A stretch of DNA of 8,156 nucleotides. It comes from a virus (lineage: Duplodnaviria; Heunggongvirae; Uroviricota; Caudoviricetes). The notes under the pieces were generated by a model. It made no database searches. It was not told where the DNA came from and worked only from the letters and a program-made list of their open reading frames with translations. The stretch lies in IMG/VR virus record IMGVR_UViG_2778261152_000004, one strand, 5' to 3'. This document shows positions 2,292 through 7,973 of the stretch, piece after piece. The translations under genes were made by a program, and so were the position numbers. How positions within the stretch are numbered: position 1 is the first letter of the stretch; the number at the start of each line of letters is the position of its first letter.

Positions 2292-2447
2292 ATGGATACT
2301 ATCGATCTTGGCAACAGCGAATCTCTGGTATGTGGCGTGTTCCCCAACCAGGACGGTACGTTCACCGCGATGACGTATACCAAAAGCAAAACGTTTAAAA
2401 CCGAAAATGGTGCCCGTCGCTGGCTGGAAAGAAACTCAGGTGAGTGA
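2292..2447 (+). CDS. ydfA: Small prophage protein, YdfA/YdaF family, 51 aa
   Basis: Track ORF 2211..2447 trimmed to the internal ATG at 2292 (MDTIDLGNSESLVCGVFPNQDGTF...) with GAGG 7 nt upstream. Size and position (first gene after the repressor) match ydfA of the dicB operon. Confidence 0.6.
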   Translation: MDTIDLGNSESLVCGVFPNQDGTFTAMTYTKSKTFKTENGARRWLERNSGE

Positions 2448-2448
2448 T

Positions 2449-2577
2449 ATGGATTTCGACACAATCATGGAAAAGGCTTACGAAGAATACTTCGAAGGTC
2501 TTGCCGACGGCGAAGAAGCTCTCAGCTTCAACGAATTTAAACAGGCGCTTTCCAGTTCGGCAAAATCTAACGGCTGA
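2449..2577 (+). CDS. ydfB: Small prophage protein, YdfB/YdaG family, 42 aa
   Basis: Not in the ORF track (too short). ATG at 2449 lies 1 nt after the ydfA stop with AGGTGA upstream. Translation: MDFDTIMEKAYEEYFEGLADGEEALSFNEFKQALSSSAKSNG. Size and position match ydfB. Confidence 0.55.
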   Translation: MDFDTIMEKAYEEYFEGLADGEEALSFNEFKQALSSSAKSNG

Positions 2578-2606
2578 TAAGCGAAACAGCACCGCGAGGA
2601 ATCAGT

Positions 2607-2825
2607 ATGCAGAAACGAGAACCCGTCATCATCGCGCCAGACTATACCGATGATGAACTTTATGAGTGGATGCGCCAGAAAATTAATGCAGCGCAGGATT
2701 TGAAATGGGCCAATGAAACCAGGGCTAAGCAGGCTGAAAATCTGTCCGCTCTGGAGCAGGATATCACCAATCTGGAAAAAGCAGCGGCATTAAGCATTGC
2801 CAGAATGATTACATACCCGCGTTAG
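2607..2825 (+). CDS. ydfC: Small prophage protein, YdfC family, 72 aa
   Basis: Track ORF with RBS GAGGAA 7 nt upstream; third gene of the ydfABC-dicF-dicB arrangement, size matches ydfC. Confidence 0.6.
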   Translation: MQKREPVIIAPDYTDDELYEWMRQKINAAQDLKWANETRAKQAENLSALEQDITNLEKAAALSIARMITYPR

Positions 2826-2966
2826 TAGCTAATCAACAAAGCTAAGGTTAGTAATTAAGGAGTTCTCCACGGGTGAGGTGGAGTGCGTGCGCCGGACACG
2901 GGTGAGCATCCGGCACTGACAGTTTACTGAAAGGATATTTCCCTGAAAAGTCAGACCATAACGCGA

Positions 2967-3031
2967 AAGCGCACGGCGAGGTAGCTGGTTCATAGATAGC
3001 CTGTCGTTAAATTTTCGTCGACCGTGCGCTT
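2967..3031 (+). other. Long-range RNA stem in the dicF leader (candidate double-strand RNase processing site)
   Basis: aagcgcacggcga (2967-2979) pairs with tcgaccgtgcgctt (3018-3031): 13 bp with one bulge, enclosing a 38-nt loop. Lies in a ~340-nt stretch with no credible ORF. Confidence 0.35.
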
Positions 3032-3165
3032 CCGGTTGTGGCAACCCGCGAAATGGCGCGGCGGTAAGTATGGCGGGGTTATTCCTTCCCCGTTGAGGAC
3101 ACCGGGTTGTCAGGTTGACCATACGCTTAAGTGACAACCCCGCTGCAACGCCCTCTGTTATCAAT

Positions 3166-3223
3166 TTTCTGGTGACGTTTGGCGGTATCAGTTTTACTCC
3201 GTGACTGCTCTGCCGCCCTTTTT
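3166..3223 (+). ncRNA. dicF: DicF small RNA (ftsZ-targeting cell-division inhibitor)
   Basis: Sequence tttctggtgacgtttggcggtatcagttttactccgtgactgctctgccgccc followed by a T5 run matches my recollection of the ~53-nt DicF. Located between ydfC and dicB as in the dicBF operon. Exact 5' end uncertain by a few nt. Confidence 0.65.
3181..3223 (+). terminator. Rho-independent terminator forming the DicF 3' end
   Basis: GGCGG (3181-3185) pairs with CCGCC (3213-3217), followed by c then TTTTT (3219-3223). Confidence 0.5.
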
Positions 3224-3392
3224 AAAGTGAATTTTGTGATGTGGTGAATGCGGCTGAGCGCACGCGGAACAGTTAAAACCAAAAACAGTGTTATGGGTGG
3301 ATTCTCTGTATCCGGCGTTAATTGTTAACTGGTTAACGTCACCTGGAGGCACCAGGCACTGCATCACAAAATTCATTGTTGAGGACGCGATA

Positions 3393-3581
3393 ATGAAAAC
3401 GTTATTACCAAACGTTAATACGTCTGAAGGTTGTTTTGAAATTGGTGTCACTATCAGTAACCCAGTATTTACTGAAGATGCCATTAACAAGAGAAAACAA
3501 GAACGGGAGCTATTAAATAAAATATGCATTGTTTCAATGCTGGCTCGTTTACGTCTGATGCCAAAAGGATGTGCACAATGA
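3393..3581 (+). CDS. dicB: Cell-division inhibitor DicB, 62 aa
   Basis: Track ORF 3288..3581 trimmed to the internal ATG at 3393 (MKTLLPNVNTSEGCFEIGV...) with GAGGA 7 nt upstream. Length and position downstream of dicF match DicB. Confidence 0.7.
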   Translation: MKTLLPNVNTSEGCFEIGVTISNPVFTEDAINKRKQERELLNKICIVSMLARLRLMPKGCAQ

Positions 3582-3769
3582 ATTCAGCATTTGTGCTTGT
3601 TCTGACAGTTTTTCTTGTTTCCGGAGAGCCAGTTGATATTGCAGTCAGTGTGCACAGGACAATGCAGGAGTGTATGACTGCAGCAACCGAACAGAAAATT
3701 CCCGGTAACTGTTACCCGGTCGATAAAGTTATTCACCAGGATAATAACGAAATCCCGGCAGGTCTTTAA
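3578..3769 (+). CDS. ydfD: YdfD-family small membrane protein (reported lysis-type toxin), 63 aa
   Basis: Track ORF 3524..3769 trimmed to the ATG at 3578, which overlaps the dicB stop as ATGA. N-terminus MNSAFVLVLTVFLVSG is hydrophobic. Size and position match ydfD. Confidence 0.65.
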   Translation: MNSAFVLVLTVFLVSGEPVDIAVSVHRTMQECMTAATEQKIPGNCYPVDKVIHQDNNEIPAGL

Positions 3770-3862: not shown

Positions 3863-6334
3863 ATGAGTAAAGTCTTTATTTGCGCCGCTATTCCTGACGA
3901 ACTGGCAACAAGGGAAGAAGGCGCTGTGGCTGTAGCCACAGCCATTGAAGCTGGCGACGAACGCCGTGCTCGAGCAAAATTTCACTGGCAGTTCCTGGAA
4001 CATTATCCGGCTGCTCAGGACTGCGCTTATAAATTTATTGTCTGCGAGGATAAACCTGGCATACCCCGCCCTGCCCTCGATTCATGGGATGCTGAATATA
4101 TGCAGGAAAACCGCTGGGATGAGGAGTCTGCTTCTTTTGTCCCGGTTGAGACTGAATCCGATCCGATGAACGTCACTTTTGACAAGCTGGCCCCTGAAGT
4201 ACAGAACGCTGTCATGGTTAAGTTCGACACATGTGAAAACATCACCGTTGATATGGTTATTAGCGCACAGGAATTGTTGCAGGAAGACATGGCAACATTC
4301 GACGGACATATCGTTGAAGCGTTGATGAAAATGCCAGAAGTTAACGCCATGTATCCGGAGCTTAAGTTGCACGCCATTGGGTGGGTTAAGCATAAATGTA
4401 TTCCTGGTGCTAAATGGCCCGAAATTCAGGCAGAGATGCGCATCTGGAAAAAACGTCGCGAAGGTGAACGCAAGGAAACCGGAAAATACACGTCTGTTGT
4501 TGATCTCGCCCGCGCCAGAACCAATCAACAGTACACTGAAAATTCAACAGGAAAAATCAGCCCGGTCATTGCTGCCATTCATCGCGAATACAAGCAGACA
4601 TGGAAAACACTGGATGACGAACTGGCCTACGCTCTCTGGCCTGGTGATGTGGATGCCGGAAACATTGACGGCAGCATCCATCGCTGGGCAAAAAAAGAAG
4701 TTATCGACAACGACCGCGAAGACTGGAAGCGTATCTCGGCATCAATGCGCAAACAGCCTGATGCCCTTCGCTACGACCGCCAGACTATTTTTGGCCTTGT
4801 CCGTGAGCGTCCGATCGACATTCACAAAGATCCCATAGCACTGAACAAATATATCTGCGAATACCTGACGACAAAGGGCGTGTTTGAGAATGAAGAAACA
4901 GACCTGGGCACTGTTGATGTTCTCCAGTCATCAGAAACACAAACTGATGCAGTGGAAACTGAGGTATCTGATATCCCAAAAAATGAAACCGCGCCGGAAG
5001 CTGAACCATCTGTAGAGCGTGAGGGGCCGTTCTATTTCCTCTTCGCAGATAAGGACGGAGAAAAATACGGTCGCGCAAACAAACTTTCTGGTCTGGATAA
5101 GGCACTGGCTGCTGGCGCCACTGAAATCACAAAAGAAGAATATTTTGCCCGAAAAAATGGCACATACACGGGCTTACCGCAAAATGTAGATACCGCTGAA
5201 GATTCAGAACAACCAGAGCCGATAAAAGTTACCGCTGACGAAGTAAACAAAATTATGCAGGCAGCCAATATCAGCCAGCCTGACGCCGATAAGTTGCTTG
5301 CTGCGTCACGTGGTGAATTTGTTGAAGGGATTAGTGACCCGAATGATCCGAAATGGGTTAAGGGGATCCAGACCCGCGATTCTGTGAACCAGAACCAGCA
5401 TGAATCGGAACGGAACTACCAAAAAGCGGAACAAAACAGCACAAATGCGTTACAAAACGAGCCAGAAACGAAACAGCCTGAACCAGTGGCGCAACTGGAA
5501 GTGGAAAAAGTCTGCACCGCCTGCGGTCAGACCGGCGGCGGCAACTGCCCTGATTGTGGCGCGGTGATGGGCGACGCAACATACCAGGAAACATTCGATG
5601 AAGAGTATCAGGTTGAAGTTCAGGAAGATGATCTGGAGGAAATGGAAGGCGCTGAACATCCACACAAGGAGAACACTGGCGGCAATCAGCATCACAATAG
5701 CGATAATGAAACTGGCGAGACGGCAGATCACTCAATTAAGGTGAACGGTCATCACGAAATCACATCCACCAGCAGGACGTGTGACCATCTAATGATCGAC
5801 CTTGAAACCATGGGAAAAAATCCTGATGCCCCGATCATCTCAATAGGTGCAATATTTTTCGATCCGCAAACCGGAGATATGGGACCGGAATTTAGTAAGA
5901 CTATCGATCTGGAAACTGCTGGCGGAGTCATTGATCGGGACACCATTAAATGGTGGCTTAAGCAATCACGCGAAGCGCAATCTGCCATTATGACCGATGA
6001 AATCCCGTTAGATGATGCACTGTTACAATTGCGGGAATTTATCGACGAAAACTCCGGTGAATTTTTTGTTCAGGTTTGGGGAAATGGAGCCAACTTCGAC
6101 AACACGATTTTGCGTCGTTCATACGAACGGCAGGGGATCCCCTGCCCGTGGCGTTACTACAACGATCGCGATGTACGCACAATCGTTGAGCTGGGGAAAG
6201 CCATAGACTTCGATGCCAGAACGGCTATTCCATTCGAAGGTGAGCGCCATAATGCACTTGATGACGCCCGTTACCAGGCAAAATACGTTTCAGTTATCTG
6301 GCAAAAACTGATCCCGAGTCAGGCTGATTCTTAA
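3863..6334 (+). CDS. Large prophage exonuclease: unknown N-terminal region, RecE-like central linker with CxxC-x7-CxxC zinc ribbon, C-terminal DEDDh 3'-5' exonuclease domain, 823 aa
   Basis: Single long ORF with a GAGG RBS. C-terminal motifs: Exo I MIDLETMG, Exo II VWGNGANFDNTIL, Exo III HNALDDARYQAKY. Central segment DKLLAASRGEFVEGISDPNDPKWVKGIQTRD...CTACGQTGGGNCPDCGAVMGDATYQETFDEE resembles what I recall of the RecE (exonuclease VIII) linker. Occupies the exo position upstream of xis-int. Confidence 0.8.
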   Translation: MSKVFICAAIPDELATREEGAVAVATAIEAGDERRARAKFHWQFLEHYPAAQDCAYKFIVCEDKPGIPRPALDSWDAEYMQENRWDEESASFVPVETESDPMNVTFDKLAPEVQNAVMVKFDTCENITVDMVISAQELLQEDMATFDGHIVEALMKMPEVNAMYPELKLHAIGWVKHKCIPGAKWPEIQAEMRIWKKRREGERKETGKYTSVVDLARARTNQQYTENSTGKISPVIAAIHREYKQTWKTLDDELAYALWPGDVDAGNIDGSIHRWAKKEVIDNDREDWKRISASMRKQPDALRYDRQTIFGLVRERPIDIHKDPIALNKYICEYLTTKGVFENEETDLGTVDVLQSSETQTDAVETEVSDIPKNETAPEAEPSVEREGPFYFLFADKDGEKYGRANKLSGLDKALAAGATEITKEEYFARKNGTYTGLPQNVDTAEDSEQPEPIKVTADEVNKIMQAANISQPDADKLLAASRGEFVEGISDPNDPKWVKGIQTRDSVNQNQHESERNYQKAEQNSTNALQNEPETKQPEPVAQLEVEKVCTACGQTGGGNCPDCGAVMGDATYQETFDEEYQVEVQEDDLEEMEGAEHPHKENTGGNQHHNSDNETGETADHSIKVNGHHEITSTSRTCDHLMIDLETMGKNPDAPIISIGAIFFDPQTGDMGPEFSKTIDLETAGGVIDRDTIKWWLKQSREAQSAIMTDEIPLDDALLQLREFIDENSGEFFVQVWGNGANFDNTILRRSYERQGIPCPWRYYNDRDVRTIVELGKAIDFDARTAIPFEGERHNALDDARYQAKYVSVIWQKLIPSQADS

Positions 6335-6346
6335 TGTTCAACTGTC

Positions 6347-6376
6347 GCCGGTTGTGACTGGTATTCTGCAACCGGC
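6347..6376 (+). other. Stem-loop between the exonuclease gene and xis
   Basis: gccggttg (6347-6354) pairs with caaccggc (6369-6376): 8-bp GC-rich stem, 14-nt loop, no following T-run. Confidence 0.3.
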
Positions 6377-6406
6377 GCTCGTCTGATGTAAGAGATAAAG
6401 AAATCG

Positions 6407-6658
6407 ATGAGCGAAGTAATCATGATTGTCTCTCCCGGCAAATGGGTATCCGAAGAGCAGTTAATTGCGCTGAAAGGAATAAAAAAAGGTACGTTAAAAA
6501 AGGCCCGGGAAAAATCGTTTATGGAAGGAAGGGAATATAAGCATGTCGCTCATGACGGTATGCCATGGGATAACAGTCCATGCTTTTACAACCTGGAAGA
6601 AATTGATCGCTGGATTGAGCGCCAGGCATCAGCGAGACCAAGACGTCATCTTACTTGA
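6407..6658 (+). CDS. xis: Excisionase (lambda Xis-like), 83 aa
   Basis: Small basic protein directly upstream of the integrase. EGREYKHVAHDG resembles the lambda Xis DGREYLFHESA segment. Start may be the in-frame ATG at 6422. Confidence 0.65.
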   Translation: MSEVIMIVSPGKWVSEEQLIALKGIKKGTLKKAREKSFMEGREYKHVAHDGMPWDNSPCFYNLEEIDRWIERQASARPRRHLT

Positions 6659-6692
6659 CTAAAAGCCACACTAACTAATGAGAGAAGTTGAA

Positions 6693-7973
6693 ATGAAATA
6701 TCCGACAGGCGTGGAAAACCATGGAGGGAAATTACGTATCTGGTTTGTTTATAAAGGCGTAAGAGTCAGGGAAAACCTGGGGGTTCCTGACACAGCAAAA
6801 AACAGGCGCGTTGCAGGTGAGCTACGCGCCTCTGTTTGTTACGCAATAAAAACTGGTGTTTTCGACTATGCAAAACAGTTTCCCTCCTCACGCAATCTGG
6901 AAAAATTTGGTGAGGCCCGACAAGATTTAACCATAAAAGAACTGGCTGAAAAATTTCTGGCACTGAAAGAAACTGAAGTCGCAAAAACATCACTCAACAC
7001 ATACCGTGCCGTCATCAAAAATATCCTGAGCATAATCGGTGAAAAAAATCTTGCCTCATCGATTAATAAAGAAAAATTACTGGAGGTTCGTAAAGAGCTA
7101 CTGACTGGATACCAGATCCCCAAAAGTAACTATATTGTTACACAACCAGGGAGATCGGCTGTAACTGTAAATAATTACATGACAAATCTTAACGCCGTGT
7201 TCCAGTTTGGTGTTGATAACGGTTACCTGTTAGATAACCCGTTTAAGGGGATCTCGCCATTAAAGGAATCAAGAACCATTCCGGATCCTCTTTCGCGGGA
7301 GGAATTCATCCGTCTTATCGATGCGTGCAGAAATCAGCAAGCCAAAAATTTATGGTGTGTTTCTGTTTATACTGGCGTTCGCCCTGGTGAGCTGTGTGCA
7401 CTTGGATGGGAGGACATAGATCTGAAAAATGGAACAATGATGATCAGGAGAAATTTAGCAAAAGACCGTTTCACGGTACCAAAAACACAGGCGGGAACCA
7501 ATCGGGTCATTCATCTTATTAAGCCAGCAATCGACGCTCTCCGGAGTCAGATGACATTAACGAGACTGAGCAAAGAGCATATCATTGATGTTCACCTCAG
7601 AGAGTATGGCAGAACAGAAAAACATAAATGCACCTTTGTTTTTCAACCTGAAGTGTCAGCGAGAGTAAAAAATTATGGTGACCATTTTACCGTTGACTCA
7701 ATAAGGCAGATGTGGGACGCAGCGATAAAACGTGCCGGACTCCGCCATCGAAAATCATATCAGTCGAGACATACTTATGCCTGCTGGTCGCTGACAGCTG
7801 GTGCTAACCCGGCATTTATAGCAAACCAGATGGGCCATGCAGATGCGCAAATGGTATTTCAGGTATACGGAAAATGGATGTCTGAAAACAATAATGCACA
7901 GGTAGCTTTGTTAAATACACAGTTAAGCGAGTTTGCCCCAACCATGCCCCATAACGAAGCAATGAAAAATTAA
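6693..7973 (+). CDS. int: Phage integrase (tyrosine recombinase, Rac/Qin IntR-like family), 426 aa
   Basis: C-terminal catalytic motifs RHTYACWSL...GANP...QMGHADAQMVFQVY (His and Tyr present). N-terminal MKYPTGVENHGGKLRIWFVYKG resembles integrase arm-binding domains. Track gives 6678 as start; 6693 is preferred because MKYPTGVE matches the family N-terminus and has a better purine-rich spacer. Confidence 0.85.
   Translation: MKYPTGVENHGGKLRIWFVYKGVRVRENLGVPDTAKNRRVAGELRASVCYAIKTGVFDYAKQFPSSRNLEKFGEARQDLTIKELAEKFLALKETEVAKTSLNTYRAVIKNILSIIGEKNLASSINKEKLLEVRKELLTGYQIPKSNYIVTQPGRSAVTVNNYMTNLNAVFQFGVDNGYLLDNPFKGISPLKESRTIPDPLSREEFIRLIDACRNQQAKNLWCVSVYTGVRPGELCALGWEDIDLKNGTMMIRRNLAKDRFTVPKTQAGTNRVIHLIKPAIDALRSQMTLTRLSKEHIIDVHLREYGRTEKHKCTFVFQPEVSARVKNYGDHFTVDSIRQMWDAAIKRAGLRHRKSYQSRHTYACWSLTAGANPAFIANQMGHADAQMVFQVYGKWMSENNNAQVALLNTQLSEFAPTMPHNEAMKN

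Follow-up and report, generated by a model that had tools for sequence, protein, structure and literature searches.

The ydfC–DicF spacer of a Qin-like prophage: a probable RNase III stem-loop and an adjoining candidate RNA domain

RNase III sites of phage early-left operons (the lambda N-leader site, sib) and the RNase III-processed sRNAs ManS and CJnc190 each involve a long imperfect hairpin within a phage or operon transcript, and its cleavage by RNase III creates a new, functional RNA end. Substrates of this enzyme need approximately two helical turns of double-stranded RNA. The spacer between ydfC and dicF described here likewise displays a long imperfect hairpin inside a phage operon transcript. 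It differs from these systems in that the 3′ strand of the hairpin appears to double as a helix strand of the RNA that is released, and in that a second enzyme, RNase E, makes the active sRNA.

The closest described system is the biogenesis of DicF from the E. coli K-12 prophage Qin, which is the same locus with essentially the same sequence, and nothing essential differs. In K-12, RNase III gives a 190-nt form, RNase E gives the 53-nt form and an intrinsic terminator forms the 3′ end; the same arrangement is found here. DicF processing in K-12 was described by Faubladier, Cam & Bouche in 1990 and was confirmed by Ragunathan 2023 (PMC10448788). An rnc mutant lacks the 190-nt species, inactivation of RNase E makes it accumulate, and the 53-nt DicF requires RNase E (Ragunathan 2023, PMC10448788). 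In K-12, primer extension maps cleavage by RNase III to “between positions 813 and 814”; the end is a processed one, with no internal promoter (PMC10448788). Reviews of DicF give a concordant account. Functional DicF is also made without RNase III, i.e. the enzyme is not strictly required (PMC11745405). Thus RNase III followed by RNase E is one route to DicF and its order is not obligatory. An earlier note on this DNA, made from its letters alone, had named maturation by RNase III and then RNase E; this is correct as a published K-12 pathway but not as a fixed order. The dicF processing pathway was published in 1990 and confirmed in 2023, and there is no new biology in the region as the earlier note described it.

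The Rfam family RF00039 covers only the 52-nt mature DicF. No Rfam family includes the 115-nt domain upstream of it (termed module B below) or the RNase III stem.

The window and its operon

The window, i.e. the whole stretch of 8156 bases that was analyzed, is the early-left (dicBF) operon of a Qin-like prophage; it takes in the immunity and early-left region of an E. coli lambdoid prophage that is Qin-like. Positions 2400–3700 display 100% identity with E. coli strain KSC9, and a match to this segment is present in 4752 of 5426 complete E. coli genomes. K-12 and the window differ at only 3 bases in positions 2800–3400 and at none in positions 2975–3400. The sole difference in the RNase III stem is C2974U, which changes a C-G pair to U.G and keeps the pair. 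Since K-12 is near-identical to the window, the K-12 processing results transfer to it. The features of the operon are as follows, in gene order.

Minus strand, first in the gene order: YdaT-like gene
1361–1999: LexA-type (S24) repressor, 212 aa
Between the repressor gene and ydfA: dicB promoter
Between the dicB promoter and ydfC: ydfA and ydfB
2607–2825, plus strand: ydfC, the last protein gene 5′ of the spacer (open reading frame list and RefSeq annotation of identical or near-identical records)
Between ydfC and DicF, approximately 340 nt: untranslated spacer
2862–2954, plus strand: three small 5′ hairpins (2862–2886, 2891–2914 and 2916–2954)
3166–3218, plus strand: DicF, 53 nt, from the K-12 annotation (terminator hairpin 3181–3217; U tract 3219–3223)
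3224–3388, plus strand: module D, a long stem (3232–3246 / 3357–3371, extending to approximately 3222–3388)
3393–3581: dicB, followed by ydfD
3863–7973, 3′ of ydfD: region of the intact 823-aa exonuclease, excisionase and integrase

Unlike K-12 Qin, this prophage has the 212-aa S24 self-cleavage repressor and an intact exonuclease, excisionase and integrase. It may still be inducible via the SOS response.

The spacer was said earlier to be GC-rich, but it is so only mildly, at 52.5% compared with 46.4% for the whole window. No credible open reading frame is found between ydfC and dicF, as had been claimed: the three open reading frames of at least 30 aa that overlap the spacer (111, 36 and 51 aa) have no Pfam match, and 1-nt indels, which are common among close variants, disrupt the spacer reading frames. 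A search of positions 2826–3166 against Rfam at a permissive threshold gives no match, and a promoter scan of the plus strand over the same positions gives no promoter-like site. ARAGORN detects no tRNA in the window; module B resembles a tRNA only in its four-helix topology. The two short hairpins named in the earlier note are both real. GCCGGA/UCCGGC is at positions 2891–2896 / 2909–2914, one base above where it had been placed, and GGGUUGUCA/UGACAACCC is at 3104–3112 / 3132–3140.

The three 5′ hairpins have a fold z of only −0.98. Positions 2862–2954 are a mosaic, with unrelated sequence at this place in other prophages, and no fewer than two versions of the upstream part, unrelated to each other, lead into the one RNase III stem. 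At the other end of the spacer, positions 3167–3218 give a full-model match to Rfam RF00039 with 76.7 bits (gathering score 48), and UUUUU follows at 3219–3223.

Module D is located between DicF and the dicB ribosome-binding site and ends right at the latter; its fold z is −3.85. Positions 3230–3370 give 34.1 bits with Rfam RF02076 (STnc100), which is below the gathering score of 47; at this sub-threshold level, the outer stem and terminal hairpins of STnc100 are as in the dicF–dicB spacer. An RNase III site is listed at K-12 position 1649470, which is window position 3254 (Gordon 2017). The literature describes a second RNase III site in the operon, and module D is probably this site.

The probable RNase III stem-loop and the predicted position of the cut

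2956–3041, plus strand: RNase III stem-loop (5′ strand 2956–2979, variable loop 2980–3017, 3′ strand 3018–3041)
3029–3036, plus strand: predicted RNase III cut, the 5′ end of the 190-nt pre-DicF
3150–3165, plus strand: A/U-rich single-stranded linker, with the RNase E cut at its 3′ edge between 3165 and 3166 (K-12 annotation and literature)

A 13-bp duplex had been proposed at positions 2967–2979 with 3018–3031, and it is present, with A3021 bulged. Ten perfect Watson-Crick pairs, 2967–2976 / 3022–3031, form its core. Folding shows that the duplex is itself the apical core of a 22-bp interrupted stem, 2956–2979 / 3018–3041, which from its base consists of 7 bp, a bulged G2963, 2 bp, an A2966 x C3032 mismatch, 10 bp, the bulged A3021 and 3 bp. 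At 22 bp the stem has the length of an RNase III substrate (about 20 bp or more, mostly continuous).

Minimum-energy folding yields the stem in each of three different sequence contexts. The local fold of positions 2950–3045 has −37.4 kcal/mol and z = −3.2; the fold z of the whole region 2826–3223 is −2.1. A perfect 10-bp stem occurs in 4.4% of dinucleotide shuffles, and interrupted helices of at least 23 bp are found in the minimum-energy folds of 66 of 150 shuffles (44%). Judged from sequence alone, the stem is weakly beyond chance, and since the helix-length shuffle test is not significant it is not claimed to be improbable on that basis; by shuffling, GC-rich sequence commonly gives helices as long as this one. 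The real support for the stem comes from its conservation pattern and the published mapping.

Conservation was analyzed in 50 unique versions of the stem from viral contigs, phages and K-12. Twenty-one stem pairs are kept in at least 94% of these variants. The loop that they enclose is represented by 26 different sequences of 27–37 nt, and the bulged base 2963 and the bases flanking the stem vary in 36–58% of the versions. Near-invariant arms around a replaced loop and replaced flanks are the pattern expected of a selected stem. The covariation test of the duplex was negative, i.e. no pair is changed on both sides in the 50 unique variants. The changes found in the stem are one-sided and give wobble pairs or, in about 12 cells, mismatches. 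Thus the evolutionary comparison supports a conserved sequence and not proven pairing.

The cdtI-type phages lend the stem indirect support: a different long hairpin takes its place directly 5′ of module B (phage cdtI, L002, positions 2934–3006; −42.5 kcal/mol, z −4.9), and the 3′ base of this hairpin also uses the 5′ strand of helix P1 of module B, CGUUGU. This suggests that the arrangement of stem plus domain is conserved even where the stem sequence differs. In phiSTEC1589-Stx1c the RNase III stem joins a DicF-like terminator directly, without module B.

A direct repeat, CGCGAAA, is present at window positions 2962–2968 and 3047–3053. Two viral-contig variants (L013 and L058) look like deletions between these repeats; they have lost the RNase III stem together with the 5′ strand of helix P1.

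The 5′ end left by RNase III had been placed near position 3030, about 190 nt from the DicF terminator. Two independent counts come within a few bases of this and give 3029–3036. Counting 190 nt back from the 3′ end of DicF (3218, or 3223 with the U tract) leads to 3029–3034. The other count starts from the K-12 dicB promoter (TTGACC, 17 nt, TAATCT), which has a predicted start near K-12 position 1,648,437; from this start, +813/814 would correspond to window positions of approximately 3033/3034, give or take a few bases. The placement depends on a gel size and a start site deduced from the promoter match, and the sequencing ladder of PMC10448788, which starts at 3004–3027, fits it. We infer that the cut lies within the 3′ strand of this particular stem. 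Almost certainly, this stem and the published RNase III site from which the 190-nt DicF precursor is released are one and the same, and as such it is already known. The literature examined gives no description of the substrate stem, of its 22-bp extent, of how it overlaps helix P1 or of the conserved fold of the 190-nt body.

Module B, a conserved domain 5′ of the terminator

The possibility had been raised that the leader holds further RNA elements, and module B is such an element. Its parts in the window, and its positions in two phages, are as follows.

3035–3149, plus strand: module B, a four-way-junction RNA domain (covariance model R1 and independent conservation)
3035–3041 / 3143–3149, plus strand: helix P1
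3046–3050 / 3057–3061, plus strand: helix P1a
3074–3078 / 3088–3092, plus strand: helix P2
3103–3112 / 3132–3142, plus strand: helix P3
3068–3073 (GUAUGG) with 3119–3124 (CCAUAC) in the P3 loop, plus strand: candidate pseudoknot
L001, 2993–3100: module B of phage P1
L002, 3001–3123: module B of phage cdtI

The fold was analyzed with covariance model R1 in an alignment of 100 distinct sequences from viral and metagenome contigs. Paired cells amount to 95.2%, compared with 33–57% when the partners are slid. Both sides change in 16 of the 33 pairs, whereas shuffles give 6.2 ± 1.5 and none of the 500 shuffles matches the observed number. Double-changed pairs are found in helix P3 (six), helix P1 (six) and helix P2 (three), and P1a is without any variation. 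In the pseudoknot a single pair covaries (UA 89, CG 7, UG 4, no mismatch), the CG form being found in the phage P1-type and in two Qin-type sequences, and the pseudoknot is a probable part of the fold. Junction and loop bases of module B are invariant. The family is confined to phages of Enterobacteriaceae, thus the covariation comes from few lineages. Thermodynamic z values are modest, at −1.0 to −2.1 for module B, for the 5′ hairpins and for the region as a whole.

Positions 3035–3157 have no match in Rfam 15 at E values up to 10, and the core sequences of module B were not found in the literature searched. Module B seems to be a conserved RNA domain that nobody has named.

Module B is represented by 9462 copies in 4417 of 5426 complete E. 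coli genomes (81%), with up to eight copies in each, and no annotation lies over the copies among the matches listed. Its taxonomic range was assessed by BLAST of phages, plasmids and E. coli genomes. BLAST against phage genomes splits the region 2826–3223 into modules, and positions 3035–3157 are conserved on their own. In phages cdtI, 2H10 and Stx2c, module B is found shortly after the repressor gene with no annotated N between them. It is also present in Salmonella phage F1055 and in “Actinobacillus phage vB_Apl-pPE4” (L003). The L003 region is very close to E. coli prophage sequence, and for this reason Actinobacillus as the stated host looks doubtful. L003 also displays, at positions 2590–2770, a tandem duplication of the DicF-like spacer and terminator after module B. 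In phages P1 and P7 the ban promoter (Pban), which C1 controls, has its predicted start approximately 28 nt before the beginning of the domain; phage P1 records label this locus only “dicF-like region”. A scan of the genome collection with a 15-base pattern gave nearly all chance matches, the only real one being an E. albertii locus (L149).

An intrinsic terminator follows helix P1 by 12–35 nt in all 16 of the 16 tabulated downstream sequence classes, where that of the DicF-type classes is taken from the known DicF terminator. The short spacer between helix P1 and the terminator is different in each class, one of these classes being DicF. A search for an antiterminator pairing that is conserved across the phage P1, F1055 and lambdoid types was negative; a GGCGG match to the terminator is absent in phages P1 and F1055. 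The minimum-energy fold of the isolated 190-nt RNA differs from the covariation-supported fold of module B. It pairs the 3′ strand of the terminator with positions 3055–3078, and this pairing was rejected as an antiterminator, as it is not conserved in the phage P1 and F1055 types. A pairing of the pyrimidine-rich P2 loop with GAGGA of J2/3 or with the dicB ribosome-binding site was dropped, being inconsistent across variants.

The put RNAs of phage HK022 are cis-acting antiterminators of a lambdoid phage that lacks N. Module B is like them in its place, i.e. it lies in an early operon before the first terminator, with no annotated N there. However, put consists of two stem-loops, whereas module B has a four-way junction and a probable pseudoknot. 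In a comparison that covered the HK022 immunity region, the best match of model R1 was no more than a short, trivial hairpin (12.3 bits, nominal E 0.007), and module B as a put-type RNA was rejected.

GUUGAGGAC in the module B junction (3092–3100) is an exact copy of the dicB Shine-Dalgarno region (3378–3386). In some variants the junction motif resembles the Shine-Dalgarno sequence of the downstream kil gene, although this is not consistent across all of them. The 3′ strand of helix P1 is CUGCAAC in the window, and most non-Qin variants have CCACAACA there (L002 3113–3122, L003, L004). CCACAACA is the consensus target of the GcvB R1 seed, a motif used by the prophage anti-sRNA AgvB. A CACAACA motif is found in some helix P1 3′ arms. 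The anti-sRNAs AgvB and AsxR are unrelated to module B; they are located downstream of PR′ and not in this operon.

Proposed processing and alternative readings

The reading that we prefer, with a probability of about 0.8, is that the spacer is a processed non-coding part of the dicBF transcript, whose stem is cut by RNase III before RNase E acts. RNase III would cut the 22-bp stem (2956–2979 / 3018–3041) in its 3′ strand at approximately 3029–3036 and leave a pre-DicF of about 190 nt, the 5′ two-thirds of which would be module B. RNase E would then cut the A/U-rich single strand between 3165 and 3166, which frees the 53-nt DicF in K-12, and the 3′ end would be formed by DicF's own intrinsic terminator, again as shown in K-12.

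GGUUGUGG (positions 3034–3041) is invariant across the 50 variants. It has two alternative partners, 2956–2962 at the base of the RNase III stem or 3143–3149 in helix P1, and the upstream partner is transcribed first. The uncleaved RNA displays two conformers that are 3 kcal/mol apart (−77.9 and −74.9). Given these alternative partners, cleavage would free the strand and let module B close. After a cut at approximately 3033/3034, GGUUGUGG would be at the extreme 5′ end of the 190-nt RNA, with only the helix P1 pairing left to it.

A further reading, which is compatible with the processing model and is held tentatively, gives module B a function as a phage RNA in its own right, the RNase III stem acting as a folding switch. 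Module B might act as a conditional terminator or govern read-through into toxic downstream genes (dicB/kil), or it could be a protein-binding or stabilizing domain of “long DicF-like” sRNAs with exchangeable seeds. Its conservation does not depend on DicF, ydfC or the RNase III stem, and both lambdoid phages and the leader of the phage P1 ban operon have it, always just before the first intrinsic terminator of an early operon. The strong covariation, the invariant junction and loop bases, the 9462 copies in 4417 of the 5426 genomes and the cdtI/2H10-type operons that have no annotated N before the terminator of module B also argue for it. Against this, the search for a conserved antiterminator pairing was negative, the few lineages behind the covariation weigh on the comparison, and module B may be passive, i.e. 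a stable precursor body. It is unlikely that the spacer has no specific role, being folded merely to escape Rho and nucleases and cut by RNase III opportunistically. The untranslated gap of about 340 nt after ydfC, the modest z values (−1.0 to −2.1) and the survival of DicF when RNase III is lost would all agree with such a spacer, but the compensatory changes in helices P1, P2 and P3 together with the invariant junction show selection for one particular fold, and the arms of the stem are conserved while its loop and flanks are replaced.

Two other origins of the 190-nt 5′ end carry far less weight than the processing of the local stem. It is very improbable that this end is made by a long-range processing stalk on either side of pre-DicF, as in rRNA maturation, in which 3023–3030 (and 3032–3034) would pair with 3257–3264 (and 3251–3253). 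AGCGCACG is indeed present at both 2968–2975 and 3257–3264, each copy being complementary to 3023–3030, and the RNase III site at window position 3254 is listed in a global study (Gordon 2017). The stalk has only 8 + 3 bp, however, compared with 22 bp in the local stem, whose partner strand is made earlier. As the 190-nt species stops at the DicF terminator, its molecules never included positions 3251–3264, and the minimum-energy fold of 2940–3400 keeps the local stem and pairs 3222–3250 with 3355–3388. Least credible of all is that the 190-nt RNA is the primary transcript of an internal promoter, or that the spacer is a decayed protein gene. PMC10448788 does cite an older report that placed a promoter upstream of dicB; but rnc cells lack the 190-nt species, the search in K-12 gave no extra promoter (PMC10448788), and the promoter scan of the spacer is without a candidate site. 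Several phage records annotate “hypothetical proteins” here, mostly on the minus strand. These open reading frames differ in frame and extent between phages, the spacer frames lack Pfam matches and suffer frequent 1-nt indels, and the substitutions track base pairing and not codons.

Under the preferred reading, the RNase III substrate can now be drawn as a 22-bp stem whose 3′ strand is shared with a helix of the released RNA. This allows a mutational test of the cooperation of RNase III and RNase E on DicF. Module B is a common, unannotated and covariation-supported phage RNA domain, which four out of every five complete E. coli genomes contain, as does phage P1. Should it govern read-through into division inhibitors of the dicB/kil type, or how stable DicF-like sRNAs are, very common prophages would have in it a new regulatory element.
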